Virus record (IMG/VR): IMGVR_UViG_3300032212_000030
Span: 1 to 45,103 of that record
Direction: 5' to 3' (one strand)
Length of the DNA: 45,103 bases
Source: a virus
Taxonomy: Duplodnaviria; Caudoviricetes
The first letter of the stretch is position 1. Each line of letters opens with the position of its first letter. Positions 2,569-43,361 of this stretch are shown piece after piece. The position numbers and the translations under genes were made by a program. Below the pieces are notes generated by a model, which had not been told where the DNA came from, searched no databases, and was given only the letters and a program-made list of their open reading frames with translations.

Positions 2569-3331
2569 ACTATCATGGTTAATTGTTTTAGGTTCTATAA
2601 TATTGTTCCAACTTCACAGCGGTTTTGCTTGGGTTGAGATAACAGGTAGTGATATTGGTTGGGCTTGGGCGGTTATGTTCGAGTTATCTGCTATCTACTT
2701 CTTAGCAACAGGTAACAAGACTTTAGGGATTGTTACTTACACGGTTGTTTTGTGTATGGCTTCTTACAGTATCTCAAAAGATGGTAGGACTGAGGTTATG
2801 GCTGGTGTTAATGATAAGGCTATTGAACTTGCTGAACAAACTTTAAAAAGTATTGTTGACGCTGAGAGAGATTGGCCTATTACGATTCAAAAAACTATGG
2901 CTAGTATTCAACAGTTAAAAGAGACTAACCATAGCACCGCTACTAACGCAACTAAGATTGTTTTTGGTATTGAAACACTACTGCAAATCATCGCCCTATT
3001 CTTTATCATGATAGCTCAAGTGAAAGCCGTTACATTTTTACGTGAAGAGGTAGTAACAGTTACGGAACCTAAGCCTGTAACCCCAAATGTAACTACAAGT
3101 AACCCTACTGCAACTACTCCTGAGGCTGTTTTTGCAATCAAGGTTTTAAAGGCCCTTACAATTTTTGGTAACGTTAATGGTCTTACTTCTGAAACCTCTG
3201 TACGTAAAAGGTTGGAGCTAGATGCACCTACGTTCACCCGTTTAAAAAAGACGCGGGACACAGGCTCAGGTATGAAGATAAAAACGATGCAACTTATCTT
3301 AGATACTGTAAATAATTATAAGGAGGCATGA
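2561..3331 (+). CDS. Multi-pass membrane protein with T/P-rich linker and possible C-terminal HTH-like domain
   Basis: Three N-terminal hydrophobic segments, a helical loop, a fourth TM, VTEPKPVTPNVTT linker; GGAG RBS before ATG 2561. Confidence 0.75.
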   Translation: MRKLSWLIVLGSIILFQLHSGFAWVEITGSDIGWAWAVMFELSAIYFLATGNKTLGIVTYTVVLCMASYSISKDGRTEVMAGVNDKAIELAEQTLKSIVDAERDWPITIQKTMASIQQLKETNHSTATNATKIVFGIETLLQIIALFFIMIAQVKAVTFLREEVVTVTEPKPVTPNVTTSNPTATTPEAVFAIKVLKALTIFGNVNGLTSETSVRKRLELDAPTFTRLKKTRDTGSGMKIKTMQLILDTVNNYKEA

Positions 3332-3621
3332 TGCAACAAATAATCGCCTCACTCATAATACTGTTGGTATTATGCTTTAAGCCTAACGCCCTTTATAGTA
3401 AAGTGGATAGTAGGTTCTTTGACAATCACCAGTATAATGCCTTATGGGTGTTAGCTGATGGGAGATGTGTATTTTGTAACGTGAAGTTGTTACCACGTAA
3501 AGGTAATGATAGAAGCGGTGAAGCTGACCACATTATAGCGTGGTCTAAAGGTGGTGAGACTACCATCAGTAACGGACAGATGTTGTGCCGTAAATGTAAT
3601 CGAAAAAAGGGTAACAAATGA
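3328..3621 (+). CDS. HNH endonuclease with hydrophobic N-terminus
   Basis: CVFC, DHIIAWSKGG, NGQMLCRKCNRKKG; N-terminal IIASLIILLVLCF. Confidence 0.85.
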   Translation: MMQQIIASLIILLVLCFKPNALYSKVDSRFFDNHQYNALWVLADGRCVFCNVKLLPRKGNDRSGEADHIIAWSKGGETTISNGQMLCRKCNRKKGNK

Positions 3622-33775: not shown

Positions 33776-33793
33776 CGCCTAAACGCACGTCCA

Positions 33794-33824
33794 CCTAAGG
33801 GCAGTTGTTTAACAGCTCTTTAGG
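33794..33824 (+). terminator. Hairpin after the isolated plus-strand gene
   Basis: cctaaggg..agttgt/acagct..ctttagg imperfect stem. Confidence 0.4.
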
Positions 33825-34142
33825 CTTCGCTTTCTTCACCCCTACTCCTCATCGACTTTAAGCTTCATTTAATCTTCTGATTTTTGCATAAGATATACTC
33901 ATGTGGTTATCCCCCACCGTGCCGACACGACTTTCCCCCTATGGGCCTGTCAGAGCGGAGCATGATAGGTCCAATCGTTTGCAGTTGTAGTCAAGCCGAC
34001 AAGGACTACAACTAGTAGGCTGTAACTTGTTAGTTTTATAGGGTTTCGTGTACGTTTTATAGGCCTAACAAACCATTAAGCACTCACCCACGATAATAGC
34101 TTATCAAATAATAATGTCAAGGCCTTATAAACCTTATAGACT

Positions 34143-34215
34143 TCACAATCTCATCCACTATTAGCCTTAGTTCTTCACAATCTACACTAATAACGTCACA
34201 ATCTACACTAATAAC
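34143..34215 (+). repeat. Short direct repeats: TCACAATCTACACTAATAAC twice (21-bp period) plus a partial copy
   Basis: 34175-34194, 34196-34215, partial TCACAATCT at 34143. Confidence 0.85.
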
Positions 34216-34305
34216 CTATAAGCCAGTGACAAATAACAAATAAAAAAATAAATAATCTGTAAGCACCATTTTATTTTTGATAATCGTTATCATACAGGCC
34301 TTAAG

Positions 34306-34345
34306 ATACAAGCTAATTAGTCATATATGGATAATTAGCTTGTAT
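34306..34345. repeat. Perfect 14-bp inverted repeat
   Basis: ATACAAGCTAATTA-N12-TAATTAGCTTGTAT. Confidence 0.85.
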
Positions 34346-34489
34346 TGTGTTAACTCAAAAGCTAACATGAGCCGATAGACTGAAAAAATAAAAATATAAG
34401 TTGTAGCACGTCCAGTCATTCTTTATGTTACCAAACGTAACGCCAAAACGCGTATTTATACATATTTAGCCTAAAGTTGACTTTAGGTA

Positions 34490-34518
34490 TTGACTTTGAC
34501 TTTAGGTTTCAATACAAT
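34490..34518 (+). promoter_or_regulatory. Strong early sigma70-type promoter
   Basis: TTGACT-N17-TACAAT upstream of the first early gene. Confidence 0.75.
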
Positions 34519-34598
34519 TAGGCAGTTAAAGAGCTAGACGGCACTAACTCGATTCAATCTTAGTTACTAGACGGTAGCTACACTAAAAGGATAAAAAG

Positions 34599-36082: not shown

Positions 36083-37114
36083 ATGGGTGCTGGATTAACA
36101 TTAGATTTAAGTGGGGTAGTCAATGAGGCTATCGAAGTGAAGTTAAAAGAGTTGGGGCTTGAAGATAAAATCAATGACGCTCTAGGGCTTGCAGTACAAA
36201 AAGCAAGTAAGATGATTACCGTTACAAACGCTGAGGGTACAACGACTAAAATGGGTGTACAACATAAGCAGTTTGAAACAATCCTAAAACTTATTAGTAT
36301 GGGTGAAAACCTTATGATTAAGGGTGAAGCTGGTAACGGTAAATCTCACGTGGTGGCTGAGGTCGCTAAAGCTTTAAACCTACCGTTCCATAGTATGTCT
36401 GTGTCTAATCAGACCACTAAAACAGACCTTATGGGTTTTGTGGATGCTCAAGGGGTGTATCGTTACAACGGTTTCATCTCTGCTTTTAGAGATGGTGGTA
36501 TCTTCAACATGGATGAGATTGACGCGGGTAACGCTAACGTGTTAGTGGTCCTTAACTCTGCGTTGAGTAATGGTTTTGTAGAGACTCCAGCGGGAGAGAT
36601 GATTTACAAGCATGAAAACTTTAGATTTTGTGCTACAGCCAACACAGTTGGTACAGGTGCTACTAGTAAGTACGTGGGACGTAACAAGCTAGATAGTGCA
36701 ACACTGGATAGATTTGCAGTAATTCACTTTGAGCTTGATGACGCTATTGAGCTGATGTTATGTGGCGGTGATGAGGTTTATCATAAGCCCCTTAAAAAAA
36801 TGCGTGAACTGGCTAACAAGAACTATGAGGAGGTACTTATCTCTCAACGTTCTGCAACACGTCTTAAAAACCTTTTAGAAAATGGTTTTGATGTGGATGA
36901 GGCCTTAGACATCGCGGTGTTTAAAGGGGTGGATGAGGATATCTGTACAGCCTTACGTAAAGAATTTAAAAAACACCATAAGGTGAAAAAGGTTGAGTCG
37001 AAAGTGGTGACACCAGTTGAAGAACCGAAAGCTGAAGAACCGAAAGCTGAAGAACTACCACCTGTAACAGATGATGAGCCTGAGACGGCTGAAAAAGATG
37101 ACTTTGATTGGTAA
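36083..37114 (+). CDS. MoxR/CbbQ/CobS-like AAA+ ATPase
   Basis: GEAGNGKS, FNMDEID, HENFRFCATANT, NKLDSATLDRF, ISQR. Confidence 0.9.
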   Translation: MGAGLTLDLSGVVNEAIEVKLKELGLEDKINDALGLAVQKASKMITVTNAEGTTTKMGVQHKQFETILKLISMGENLMIKGEAGNGKSHVVAEVAKALNLPFHSMSVSNQTTKTDLMGFVDAQGVYRYNGFISAFRDGGIFNMDEIDAGNANVLVVLNSALSNGFVETPAGEMIYKHENFRFCATANTVGTGATSKYVGRNKLDSATLDRFAVIHFELDDAIELMLCGGDEVYHKPLKKMRELANKNYEEVLISQRSATRLKNLLENGFDVDEALDIAVFKGVDEDICTALRKEFKKHHKVKKVESKVVTPVEEPKAEEPKAEELPPVTDDEPETAEKDDFDW

Positions 37115-37123
37115 GGAGATATC

Positions 37124-37903
37124 ATGACACAGAGTAACACAAGATACATGAATGAGCTAGTATTTAATAACGTGTCAGACTTTACACGTTATCTTGAAGC
37201 TCATAAGGATAGTGAGAACCAAACCACCATCTATTGTGGTTCTAAGTGGCGTCCTGATACTTGGACGGGTGTTGGTACATGGTATGAGTTCATGGACTAT
37301 CTTGAAGATGGTAACCCTGACGCTACAGCAGATATCCGTAAGAACGCTAAATACTACATTGATAAGTTTGAAGATAAGTTCACCGAGTCAAGCGAGTATA
37401 TGTTTGATGTGGTGGGTGAGTTTTTCGATATCGGTGCGGTGATGGTAGGTGAACCCGAAGCATGGATAAAAGAGGTAAAGATTGAGGATGATAAGTTTAT
37501 TAACTTAACGATTCAAGGCTCTTATCCTCATAACACTGACTTAGACATGGTTAGGGAGAATGGTTCTAAGGTGTTAGCTATAGCTTTAACCTTAGAGAAA
37601 ATGGGCTTTTTGGTTCAGATTGATGTGGCGTTTCATACAAGAGGTTCTTATCTTAAGAACTCTAACAAAGAGACGCGGGCCTTAATCAAAGTGAAGGGTT
37701 ATGACCAAGGGCTTGACTACAAGAAACTAGGGATAGTTTTAGGTGTACCGTTTTTCAGACGTGGGTTTCTCAGACTCTTAGAGATAGAGTATGGTAAGGA
37801 CGTGAAAGTCTCTTATGGTACAGCTGGTATGAAAACAGGTGATATTAACCTAGCAAGAACTGGTGATATTTTAGAACTAGAGAAAAAACTAGAAGGAGAA
37901 TAG
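37124..37903 (+). CDS. vWA-like partner of the AAA+ ATPase
   Basis: Adjacent to the MoxR-type ATPase; DVVGEFFDIGAVMVGEPEAW, LEKMGFLV, FFRR, YG. Confidence 0.6.
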   Translation: MTQSNTRYMNELVFNNVSDFTRYLEAHKDSENQTTIYCGSKWRPDTWTGVGTWYEFMDYLEDGNPDATADIRKNAKYYIDKFEDKFTESSEYMFDVVGEFFDIGAVMVGEPEAWIKEVKIEDDKFINLTIQGSYPHNTDLDMVRENGSKVLAIALTLEKMGFLVQIDVAFHTRGSYLKNSNKETRALIKVKGYDQGLDYKKLGIVLGVPFFRRGFLRLLEIEYGKDVKVSYGTAGMKTGDINLARTGDILELEKKLEGE

Positions 37904-40206: not shown

Positions 40207-40434
40207 ATGACAATAGAATACATGGGAAATGAGGTGTATAAATTAGAGTTTTTTGACGGTCAAATTGTGACCTTAAATTCAGACCAATTAGCAACCATAA
40301 AACAGTACGATTTTCACAACAATAAAGTGGGTGTTTCATGTGAAGATTTAGAGATAAAAATTGAGAGATTAAACATCGAAATTGATAGAATGAAAGAGGT
40401 TGCGATTGAAATAAAACGATTGGCTGATTTCTAA
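40207..40434 (+). CDS. Hypothetical protein
   Basis: AAAAGGATA RBS. Confidence 0.65.
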   Translation: MTIEYMGNEVYKLEFFDGQIVTLNSDQLATIKQYDFHNNKVGVSCEDLEIKIERLNIEIDRMKEVAIEIKRLADF

Positions 40435-40776
40435 TTTTTTCAGTTTTTTCACTGTTTTTCATAAAAATAATGTAAGGCTTAAAAACTTTTTTTATCTTTT
40501 CACTTTAAGATAAAAATGAGATTAAGCTAACTTTTATGTAAAATGATGGCACAGGTAGCCAAGAACGCTAAAAAGTAACCTCTAAGTTACACTTCAATTT
40601 TTGCTTGGCTACCTTTTCAAAAGCCCAAATTTAGCCTTTTAATACTATATAGTATATATAGTTACACTATTACTATAGGGGTAGTATATATATTTTTATT
40701 TTTTTAGAGTAAAAAAAAAAAAAAAGAATTTATAGAGAGGTTAAGAGAAAGCGGTGAAACTATACTAGGGGTTACC

Positions 40777-40806
40777 TTGCTAAATAACCTAAAGTTTTGC
40801 TATAAT
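40777..40806 (+). promoter_or_regulatory. Promoter of the replication operon
   Basis: TTGCTA-N18-TATAAT with extended TGn. Confidence 0.7.
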
Positions 40807-40813
40807 AATTTAT

Positions 40814-40940
40814 TAGAATTTTAAGACGAGTCACCACTCGATTTAGAGGCATATTTTGTGCCTCGTCTTAGGGTTCTATTTTTGAATCAAAATCGGGTGG
40901 TGACTGACTTTGATTCTTCCCTAAATATTTGAGGAGGATT
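40814..40940 (+). ncRNA. Candidate structured cis-regulatory leader of the primase gene
   Basis: 17-bp stem, 16-nt long-range complementarity, complementary hairpin loops. Confidence 0.6.
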
Positions 40941-40946
40941 ACCAAC

Positions 40947-43361
40947 ATGAATGAGATACTAAAAGATGCTTATGAGCAATACCGAAGTCAAGGCTTCATT
41001 TTGCAAAAATCAGCCAAACATGAAAAACACGCTCATCGCAAAGGGAGCTACACGGAACGTGAGAATGAACCGTGGGATGATAACGCTACAGGTTACGTGG
41101 CTATCATCCCACCATCACTCATCATCGTGGACAATGACAAATATCAAGATGAGGGTGAGAGCTTCAAACAACTGCTCAAAGACTTGGGGATATCTAAGTC
41201 TGACAAACCTGAACCCTTTGCCCTGACACCCAGTGGTGGTGAGCATTACGCTTTCCACAACCCTAACCCTGAGCTAGTGGTCGGTAACTTGAACAAGAAA
41301 TATCCAGCCTTAGATATCTACGCTGGTTATCAATCCGTGGTCCCTATTGTCGGCACTACGGTTCTTAACAAGCAAGACAAACTAGCCTCTTACGAGTGGG
41401 GTACGTTCGATGACAACCTCATTGTCAATCCTTGGATGGATGTGATGAGCGAAGTCTTAGAGCTACGCCCTAGAGCTGAGAAACGTCAACAAGAGTACGA
41501 TGACCTTGATATCGCTATCAAGGCTGATGACATGAGTGAGCAAGAGGTTATTGACCTTATCGCTCGTATGCCTGAGGACTTGGATTACGACACTTGGTTG
41601 CACGTTGGTATGGCTATTTATGACCGCTTCGGTGGGAGTGATAAAGGCTATGAGTACTTCAAAGATTTTTCAGAGAAGTCATCTAACAAGTACGATGAGG
41701 ACTTCACCTACGGTAAGTGGCATAACGGACACCTAGTGCCTGATAGTATCACTTACAAGCGATTACGCACAGTAGCGAGGGATAGTTTCATCTACGACAT
41801 TGAGTCTCGTATCGCTGAGTCTGAGGAGTTTGACGATATCTTGGAAGAGATTAAAGCAAACCCCTCTATCGGAGCTAAGGGCGTGAAAGACGCTGACATG
41901 AGACTCAAGTTAGCTCAAGATATTAACGCTCGGATGAAAGAGCTTAAACAACCTGTCACGCAAGCAAGAACTTTAGCCAAAGCGATGACACCAACTGTCG
42001 AAGAGACCTTAACTGAGGGTGTTGAGGGTGCTGACTGGATGGACGGGCTTGTTTACGTTGAGAGTTTTTCAACAAAATATTTTCTCACAGCTACACGAGA
42101 GAAGCTAAGTCCTGATGGTGCAAACGGCAGACTACATCAAGAGTTATCCGACCTGAAGAAAAAACTTGGGATGAAAACACTCACCGTACAAAACTTGGTC
42201 AAGATGAACATGGTGAGAATATGCTCTAACCACGAGTACAACCCAAAAACTAACGAAGTTATCTTCACGAGTCGTACAGGAGCTACCATCCTCAACACCT
42301 ACGTTGCTGACAGTAGGCCACCTGTAGCTGAGGAGTACAGCGAGAAAGGTCAAGCCCTTATCGCTAAGTTTGAACAACACCTCAAGTACCTGATGACTGA
42401 GGGTGAGGCTGAAATACTCTTGGACTGGTTGGCGTATCAAGCTCAGAACTTCGGTACTAAGCTGTTGTGGACGCCACTGATTCAGTCCGCTGAGGGTTTG
42501 GGTAAATCGCTTCTAGGTACAGCGATGATAAACAATGTGTTTGGCTACTCTAACGCTGGTACAGTTGACAGCAACGTGGTCGTAAGTCCAAACACGTCAT
42601 GGGCCACTAAGGGTGTCTTTCAAGTCTTGGAAGAGATTAAACTAGCTGGTCATAACCGCTTTGAGGTCCTTAACCAACTCAAACCGTTCATCACCAACAA
42701 AACAGTGTCACGTGTTGAGAAGTACGAGGCTAGTAGCGAGGTAACGAACTACTGCAACTTTATCGCCTTAACCAACTTCAAAGACGCGATACCTGTGAGT
42801 GCTGATGACAGACGGTGGTGGGTAGTGTTTGCTAAAGTGAACACGATTGAGGACCTTGAAAAGTTGGCAGATTGTGAGAGACGCGAATACTTCGAGCCTT
42901 TGCACAATCTAGCCAATGGAGAGTGTGGCGGTGAGTTCCACAAGTGGATGATGGAGAGGGACTTAAGCGAGTTCAACCCTAATTTTCCACCTGTATCAAT
43001 TCACAAAGCACGGATGATTGCAACTGAGGAGAGTAAGACAGCTAACTTGACAGACCTACGGGATGTTATTGACCACGGTTCACGTGGAGTTACTAAGTCG
43101 GTATTGTCCTCAAAAGAGTTACGAAAACTAACTCAGACTCCTACTTGGGAGCATGACAGTCTTGATTACAACGAGGTAGTCAAGCTACTCAGAGCCTTGG
43201 GATACACAAAGTTTCCGAGAAAGGTTAAGAGTAAAGACGAATTACACAGCATTTGGTTCAATGAGCCTAGACTGAGTGACGATGAGGTGCGTGAAAGATT
43301 CCACGCCAGTATGAAGTTGCCAGCTAATGACGGCTTCGATGATTTTCCTGAGGAGGATTAA
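40947..43361 (+). CDS. Primase-polymerase + PriCT-2 + SF3 (D5/DUF5906-like) helicase; start probably 40947
   Basis: IVDND, TPSGGEHY, LDYDTWLHVGMAI, SAEGLGKS, LEEIK, FIALTN, DDRRW; GAGGAGG RBS. Confidence 0.9.
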   Translation: MNEILKDAYEQYRSQGFILQKSAKHEKHAHRKGSYTERENEPWDDNATGYVAIIPPSLIIVDNDKYQDEGESFKQLLKDLGISKSDKPEPFALTPSGGEHYAFHNPNPELVVGNLNKKYPALDIYAGYQSVVPIVGTTVLNKQDKLASYEWGTFDDNLIVNPWMDVMSEVLELRPRAEKRQQEYDDLDIAIKADDMSEQEVIDLIARMPEDLDYDTWLHVGMAIYDRFGGSDKGYEYFKDFSEKSSNKYDEDFTYGKWHNGHLVPDSITYKRLRTVARDSFIYDIESRIAESEEFDDILEEIKANPSIGAKGVKDADMRLKLAQDINARMKELKQPVTQARTLAKAMTPTVEETLTEGVEGADWMDGLVYVESFSTKYFLTATREKLSPDGANGRLHQELSDLKKKLGMKTLTVQNLVKMNMVRICSNHEYNPKTNEVIFTSRTGATILNTYVADSRPPVAEEYSEKGQALIAKFEQHLKYLMTEGEAEILLDWLAYQAQNFGTKLLWTPLIQSAEGLGKSLLGTAMINNVFGYSNAGTVDSNVVVSPNTSWATKGVFQVLEEIKLAGHNRFEVLNQLKPFITNKTVSRVEKYEASSEVTNYCNFIALTNFKDAIPVSADDRRWWVVFAKVNTIEDLEKLADCERREYFEPLHNLANGECGGEFHKWMMERDLSEFNPNFPPVSIHKARMIATEESKTANLTDLRDVIDHGSRGVTKSVLSSKELRKLTQTPTWEHDSLDYNEVVKLLRALGYTKFPRKVKSKDELHSIWFNEPRLSDDEVRERFHASMKLPANDGFDDFPEED

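Follow-up and report, generated by a model that had tools for sequence, protein, structure and literature searches.

A conserved leader RNA ahead of a phage primase-helicase gene is a candidate same-strand antisense switch

The leader of the primase-helicase gene in a complete phage genome of 45,103 nt (the whole stretch analysed, hereafter the window) is, as judged by sequence comparison, a real, conserved and uncatalogued RNA element. A segment near the predicted transcript start (segment a) is complementary to a segment (a*) held in a downstream hairpin (H2), and folding models indicate that pairing of the two likely represses translation. The favoured explanation, to which we give a probability of roughly 48%, is that primase translation would be repressed by a released 65-nt RNA that carries segment a and pairs with new transcripts, with or without help in cis.

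RESULTS AND DISCUSSION

Phage, gene and genome setting

The IMG/VR record is a complete 45-kb virus with direct terminal repeats, and a single contig from the probable source run, not independent of the record, spanned the stretch with zero differences. The primase-helicase gene is the first gene of a replication cluster and is followed by genes for a 120-aa protein, a DUF2800 protein, a single-stranded DNA-binding protein (SSB), a DNA polymerase and a helicase. The window also encodes a head-tail connector, a terminase and a major head protein. A scan of 40 window proteins revealed no integrase, repressor or partition families, many proteins being unannotated. The PF00589 integrase was found in 0 of 16 records and in 0 of 8 near-complete records, and integrase, repressor and partition families were absent from 96 proteins of relatives except for one helix-turn-helix (HTH) protein in a phage without the leader. 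Primase relatives were absent from the species-genome collection, where DUF2800 relatives were at most 38% identical; cultured phages gave distant matches only and plasmids gave no match. From the style of the promoter, the host may be a member of the Campylobacterota.

The primase family was found to be mosaic, with 49 of 63 relatives aligning over the N-terminal 34-49% only and carrying a different C-terminal half. The replication module in L233-L234 (G006) and L241 (G013) is coupled to another virion module (terminase 6N, tail tube), indicating that the module moves between phage types. Elsewhere in the window, an AAA_5 ATPase and DUF7192 gene pair (36083-37903) is also present in five leader-bearing and two leader-less relatives, and 820 nt without a long ORF (33776-34598) where late genes give way to early ones contain a 17-nt direct repeat and promoter-like sites.

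Architecture of the leader

The following features were located in the window.

40575-40775, no strand: AT-rich tract that precedes the promoter, a possible origin of replication, suggested by repeats in relatives and weak in the window
40798-40806, + strand: extended -10 promoter-like site TG-C-TATAAT, predicted transcript start at approximately 40812-40814
40814-40878, + strand: 5' domain of 65 nt, candidate small RNA, fold of -26.9 kcal/mol
40814-40827 with 40865-40878, + strand: closing stem P1, 14 bp (17 bp in the rod form)
40827-40840, + strand: hairpin P2, CGAG-TCACCA-CTCG, loop displaying the seed UCACCA, part of the best fold in the window only
40829-40844, + strand: segment a, the putative antisense code, 16 nt
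40846-40864, + strand: hairpin P3, 8 bp, -11.2 kcal/mol, often UUCG-capped in homologues (by eye)
40879-40883, + strand: U5 linker from P1 to H2, not conserved as a terminator tail
40884-40916, + strand: target hairpin H2, loop GUGGUGA at 40897-40903, -11.2 kcal/mol
40890-40905, + strand: segment a*, complement of a
40915-40920, + strand: anti-Shine-Dalgarno UCUUCC, of which only the first 2 nt lie inside the H2 stem in the window
40931-40938, + strand: Shine-Dalgarno sequence GAGGAGGA
40947-43361, + strand: primase-helicase gene, 804 aa, PriCT_2 and DUF5906, PHROG DNA primase

The four pairings of the original prediction were all present. The 17-bp stem (40814-40830 with 40862-40878, three G-U pairs, followed by TTTTT) was confirmed base by base, as were the small hairpin P2, the hairpin H2 with the 16-bp pairing of a and a* (one G-U), and the ability of TCTTCC to pair with GGAGGA at 40933-40938. 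The prediction had overlooked P3, and its simple 17-bp terminator hairpin did not stand, as the best fold of the 5' domain was a three-way junction on the 14-bp stem, P3 included. In the best fold of the full leader, the 16-bp a:a* duplex displaced P1 and H2, and UCUUCC paired with the Shine-Dalgarno.

The leader was more stable than all of 200 shuffled sequences (z = -4.34). Its score for two mutually crossing helices was -21.9, a value reached by 0 of 1000 shuffles, and it ranked first among 1124 slices of the window (runner-up -13.8); the minus strand at the same position scored -11.8. The 13-mer around the seed matched only the two known sites in the window, even when 2 mismatches were allowed, and the seed 7-mer occurred 10 times compared to 4.8 expected (2 of 100 shuffles). 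Promoter-like sites of the kind that precedes the leader numbered 36 in the window scan compared to 30.5 expected.

The leader is conserved among homologous loci

Loci were collected through primase relatives and the DUF2800 family in viral and metagenome collections, giving 26 loci with distinct upstream sequence. L029 (too short) and distant relatives were excluded; in most of the latter, by eye, a small HTH-like gene or another gene lies before the primase. The layout was carried with different letters by 16 of the 26 loci (the window, L003, L005, L007, L009, L010, L013, L017, L023, L026, L030, L033, L035, L040, L043 and L053), a set sorted by eye and folding and thus selected for the feature. 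In this layout, the transcript starts with a long stem; next come segment a, which is exposed, and H2, which holds a* and, in most cases, an anti-Shine-Dalgarno arm. Eight of the 26 loci (L002, L008, L011, L014, L018, L028, L032 and L034) were leader-less, indicating that the leader is dispensable, and L036 was left unclassed. The leaders of L009 and L013 are nearly identical.

The crossing-helix score was above all shuffles in 14 of the 15 positives scored directly, L023 failing at 12/100, and also in three of the eight leader-less loci, there through inverted repeats upstream of promoters (-11.2 to -13.6). A model built from five leaders retrieved the held-out leaders L035 (45.8 bits, E 1e-9), L003 (4e-9) and L023 (7e-5). 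Models R1 and R2 were narrow: R1 missed the window, and R2, which found one strong copy per genome, detected only L026 (E 0.002) among the held-out leaders.

A -10-like hexamer was found 3-14 nt upstream of the stem in 14/14 leaders (eight with TGn; the picks in L010 and L040 were weak), and a 5' domain of 62-78 nt with a long closing stem was likewise present in 14/14. The best fold of the 5' domain was a longer rod with segment a in a big loop in all 13 of the other homologues. The form with two hairpins was best in the window only, within 6 kcal/mol of the best in 10 more leaders and absent from three, as computed with a folding program that ignores coaxial stacking. The small 'kissing' hairpin originally proposed is present, but as a best fold it belongs to the window alone.

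In the primase tree, the leader was found in the deepest branches; five changes were needed, at least two of them forced by strong branches, and the deep order is unsure because of long branches. No protein family was present in all seven leader-bearing genomes and absent from all five leader-less genomes, several being partial. L059, also among the 26 loci, has a long-hairpin variant of the leader (3170-3340), in which a 25-bp helix is accompanied by an internal, duplicated arm as a competitor for the same 5' segment.

Between leader and primase there is a small ORF in L009 (2810-3001) and in L030 (1471-1688), and three ORFs in L035 (207-2293), where the leader lies 2.1 kb before the primase and the last of the three ORFs is HTH-like by eye. 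Those of the intervening ORFs that were scanned had no Pfam match. Their position indicates that the leader heads an operon rather than a gene. In the leader-less L011 and L028, an operator-like inverted repeat flanks the -10 site within the last 45 nt before the start codon; perhaps protein control replaces the RNA there.

Compensatory changes and cognate pairing

P1 and H2 were recovered in an alignment of five leaders made from sequence only, with double changes at 16 of 38 pairs, and P1 had double changes at 11 of 16 pairs in an alignment of seven leaders made in the same way, both counts being uncorrected for relatedness. Double changes also occurred within H2 in five relatives. These matched changes in homologues uphold the proposal of an alternative-fold RNA element in the primase leader, for which covariation had been named as the check. 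Inside helices defined by Watson-Crick pairs, G-U outnumbered A-C combinations 38 to 11 (p = 1.4e-4), which points to an RNA on the + strand.

In most leaders, a and a* form one continuous complement of 13-20 nt. Duplexes between 5' domains and H2 targets were compared in 14 leaders, a set without L035 and without L009, a near-copy of another leader. The cognate ones had a mean of -30.8 kcal/mol compared to -17.1 kcal/mol for non-cognate duplexes (sd 4.9, n = 182). The own 5' domain was the best partner for 14/14 H2 targets, and the own H2 was the best partner for 11/14 5' domains, those of L013, L040 and L053 binding a foreign H2 better. According to these computed energies, about 15 largely non-cross-reacting candidate translational switches of about 135 nt would form a natural set for simple reporter fusions.

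Predicted masking of the ribosome site

With constraints used to impose an ON or an OFF state, the ribosome site was costlier to open once a* was taken in 12/14 leaders (median 2.2 kcal/mol), the opening energies being model-dependent. In the window the cost rose from 3.9 to 7.9 kcal/mol, and four of the six Shine-Dalgarno pairs could still form in the ON state. The link through the anti-Shine-Dalgarno arm was modest: the difference was about 1 kcal/mol in L040, L053 and L010, and opening was no harder in L017 and L026. An earlier test in which a* was masked as unpaired gave mixed results; H2 could close over the masked part, and that test was therefore replaced. The 5' arm of H2 resembles the Shine-Dalgarno region in many leaders, clearly so in L003, L005, L013, L023, L030 and L033, so that the 3' arm of H2 can pair with either. 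The H2 arm was in the top 5% of Shine-Dalgarno partners in 7/14 leaders, by a ranking biased towards the arm because the best of several windows was taken.

Proposed mechanism

The sequence presents P1 at the predicted transcript start, then segment a, H2 with a*, and the anti-Shine-Dalgarno arm. In the predicted ON state, a new transcript would fold P1 and then H2 with part of the anti-Shine-Dalgarno, leaving the ribosome site fairly open. In the predicted OFF state, a would pair with a*, beginning at the H2 loop, H2 would open and the freed arm would bind the Shine-Dalgarno. We suggest that the stem-protected 5' domain would outlast cleavage and trimming of the mRNA, accumulate with genome copies, and repress later transcripts as well as incoming phages of the same code. 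The translation block may be polar on the downstream DUF2800, SSB and polymerase genes, and pairing in cis may add to the repression. If this proposal is true, replication dose would be controlled, and self told from non-self, by an RNA code without a repressor protein.

In favour of a released RNA, the 5' domain resembles the C4 and CI RNAs in its size, in the long closing stem with which the transcript would begin, and in its diverging code; the leaders whose best cis fold lacks a:a* and the high refolding barriers (see below) also speak for action in trans. Several points count against it. The a:a* pairing was already part of the best full-length cis fold in 11/15 leaders, so that no trans RNA is needed. 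No signal to generate a short RNA, terminator or other, was conserved among the leaders, and as a U-run occurred in one leader of 15, processing would be required to yield the short RNA. On geometric grounds, an unbroken duplex of 13-20 bp would be hard to form with a closed-stem RNA. Finally, as no integrase or repressor was found, immunity lacks an obvious role.

Alternative explanations

Several of these points fit a folding timer in cis, in which the transcript is translatable in an early P1 and H2 fold until a:a* pairing hides the ribosome site; primase per mRNA would then be capped without a small RNA. Where a:a* was in the best fold, it lay 3-13 kcal/mol below the P1 and H2 state; no terminator is conserved, and the timer would not require a lysogenic state. 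However, the best cis fold of the remaining 4/15 leaders had no a:a* pairs and kept P1, and the computed refolding barriers were high, at 16-33 kcal/mol where a:a* was in the best fold (upper bounds, with pseudoknots disallowed). Divergence of the code between phages would also be expected more for a diffusible RNA. We consider the timer doubtful as the whole explanation.

That P1 and the U5 terminate transcription, and that the short product then interacts with the leader of read-through transcripts, had been the original suggestion. It draws on the U5 directly after the stem in the window and on the precedent of IsrK, as outlined in PMC4825925. The terminator was not borne out: at least five U within 8 nt followed the stem in only 1/15 leaders, indicating that termination is not the mechanism of the family, and the stem, with a base rich in A-U and G-U pairs and enclosing at least 31 nt, was absent from the terminator scan. 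Nor can a*, located beyond the stop point, serve as a cis-acting antiterminator. An attenuator is thus quite improbable.

We give little credence to a counter-transcript of the plasmid type, in which a promoter between H2 and the Shine-Dalgarno would make an opposite-strand RNA that binds H2, a:a* being a competing cis pairing. A good minus-strand -10 hexamer was found 17-23 nt before the start codon in 6/14 leaders (shuffle p 0.03-0.07, scored with a weight table), but p was below 0.05 in only 2/14 and the window had none (p = 0.70). The AT-rich spacer yields + strand hexamers too, and the G-U bias favours structure on the + strand.

An equally slim chance is left to the opposite polarity, namely activation of the gene by a:a* pairing or by the small RNA. 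IsrK, a leader-derived RNA, activates its own mRNA in trans (PMC4825925), and L017 opened slightly more easily in the paired state (-0.5 kcal/mol). However, H2 holds the anti-Shine-Dalgarno arm and not the Shine-Dalgarno, so that taking a* frees the blocker, and 12/14 leaders went the other way. That the pairings are due to chance, or to a DNA-level structure tied to the adjoining origin-like tract, is hardly credible given the 0/1000 shuffles for the window, the compensatory changes, the G-U bias and the UUCG loops in homologues, even though inverted repeats upstream of the promoter beat all shuffles in three of eight leader-less loci.

An origin-like tract adjoins the leader

In 13 of the 20 loci scanned (L003, L005, L007, L010, L011, L013, L017, L018, L030, L033, L040, L043 and L053), a 7-mer recurred 5-11 times within the 400 nt that precede the promoter, where its copies, in both orientations, surround an AT-rich core, and the word differed between phages. 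In the tract at 40575-40775 of the window, the top word occurred only twice and GTAAC/GTTAC four times. An inverted repeat at 40553-40614, with perfect 11-bp arms separated by 40 nt, lies upstream of the AT-rich tract. By analogy with P4, the repeat tract looks like an iteron origin adjoining its initiator gene. GC skew was also tried for locating the origin; its extremes (33354 and 9793) follow gene direction and therefore say nothing about 40.6 kb.

A more speculative and rather unlikely extension of the released-RNA explanation is that origin, promoter, coded RNA switch and initiator together form a plasmid-style replicon in phages without a recognisable integrase or repressor, in which the released RNA would count copies and exclude phages of the same code. 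If true, this would permit superinfection immunity or a carrier state based on RNA only, and almost all of the phages would each have a lock-and-key code of their own.

Comparison with known systems

No Rfam family reached its gathering score in the window, in agreement with the earlier remark that the element belongs to no named family, and the 15 homologous loci gave tRNA only. At E <= 10, the region 40400-41100 had no match to C4 (RF01695) or IsrK and three chance matches of snoRNA level (E 5-6). The IsrK model (RF01394) had no match in the window or the 15 homologous loci. As positive controls, P1 c4 and P4 CI scored 68.8 and 74.9 bits with RF01695, and the P4 control of the IsrK search gave 60.8 bits. 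No description of the leader element was found in the open-access literature; c4-2 and other phage motifs described with PMC5737381 may bear on its novelty.

The kinship to P1 C4 and P4 CI that had been suspected holds, the designs being close. Like the candidate small RNA of the leader, C4 of P1/P7 (RF01695, clan CL00128) has a long closing stem, and the strand that encodes it also carries its targets, downstream and before a start codon. The C4/CI RNA is released by RNase P processing and acts in trans. C4 RNA has 77 nt and two inner hairpins, one capped by UUCG, and no more than about 50 nt separate its targets from the start codon; RNAs of the clan measure about 75-85 nt, the RF01695 consensus combines a 17-bp stem with two hairpins, the first of them a UUCG hairpin, and a linker, and the P1 c4 annotation runs from the 77-nt RNA to targets a2 and b2 and then icd. 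In the phage leader the inner order is mirrored, with the UUCG-type hairpin on the 3' side, and most leaders have one continuous 13-20-nt complement whereas C4 has two sites of 7-8 nt. The leader is also without the upstream a1/b1 copy, its stem beginning at the predicted transcript start. Its target is the primase-helicase and not icd/ant, and no temperate immunity region was found around it (PF00589 in 0 of 16 records). C4 represses translation and sets heteroimmunity, as stated in PMC12197685.

P4 CI, which itself matches RF01695, is a leader-derived RNA that controls an operon with the alpha DNA primase (PMC4825925), and so parallels the leader in its target. The pairing of CI with seqA, upstream, and with seqC, downstream, terminates transcription in a lysogen with an integrase; in contrast, the phage leader has a single downstream target, predicted Shine-Dalgarno masking and no integrase found.

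In the Salmonella prophage Gifsy-1, the 5' part of the IsrK (RF01394) leader pairs downstream in cis to give a translationally inactive fold, and the long transcript is in turn acted on in trans by its short form (PMC4825925). IsrK is thus the closest precedent for action in cis plus trans, but it has an intrinsic terminator and activates, whereas the terminator of the phage leader is not conserved and repression is predicted.

In the I-complex plasmids, RNAI comes from the opposite strand, as a counter-transcript, and translation is activated by the cis pseudoknot of repZ/repA. Pairing of this RNAI (Inc RNA) is initiated at a loop of a leader hairpin, controls the replication initiator and sets incompatibility, according to PMC10724649. 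In the phage leader, by contrast, the complement is on the same strand and upstream of the target, and pairing is predicted to be repressive.

By analogy, the leader would work like C4/CI but is not a member of that family. To our knowledge, the known same-strand antisense switches (C4, CI and IsrK) stem from temperate phages of enterobacteria, where they guard lysogeny or antirepressor functions for the most part. Unlike these, the leader described here heads a replication operon, beside an origin-like tract, in phages without recognisable lysogeny genes.
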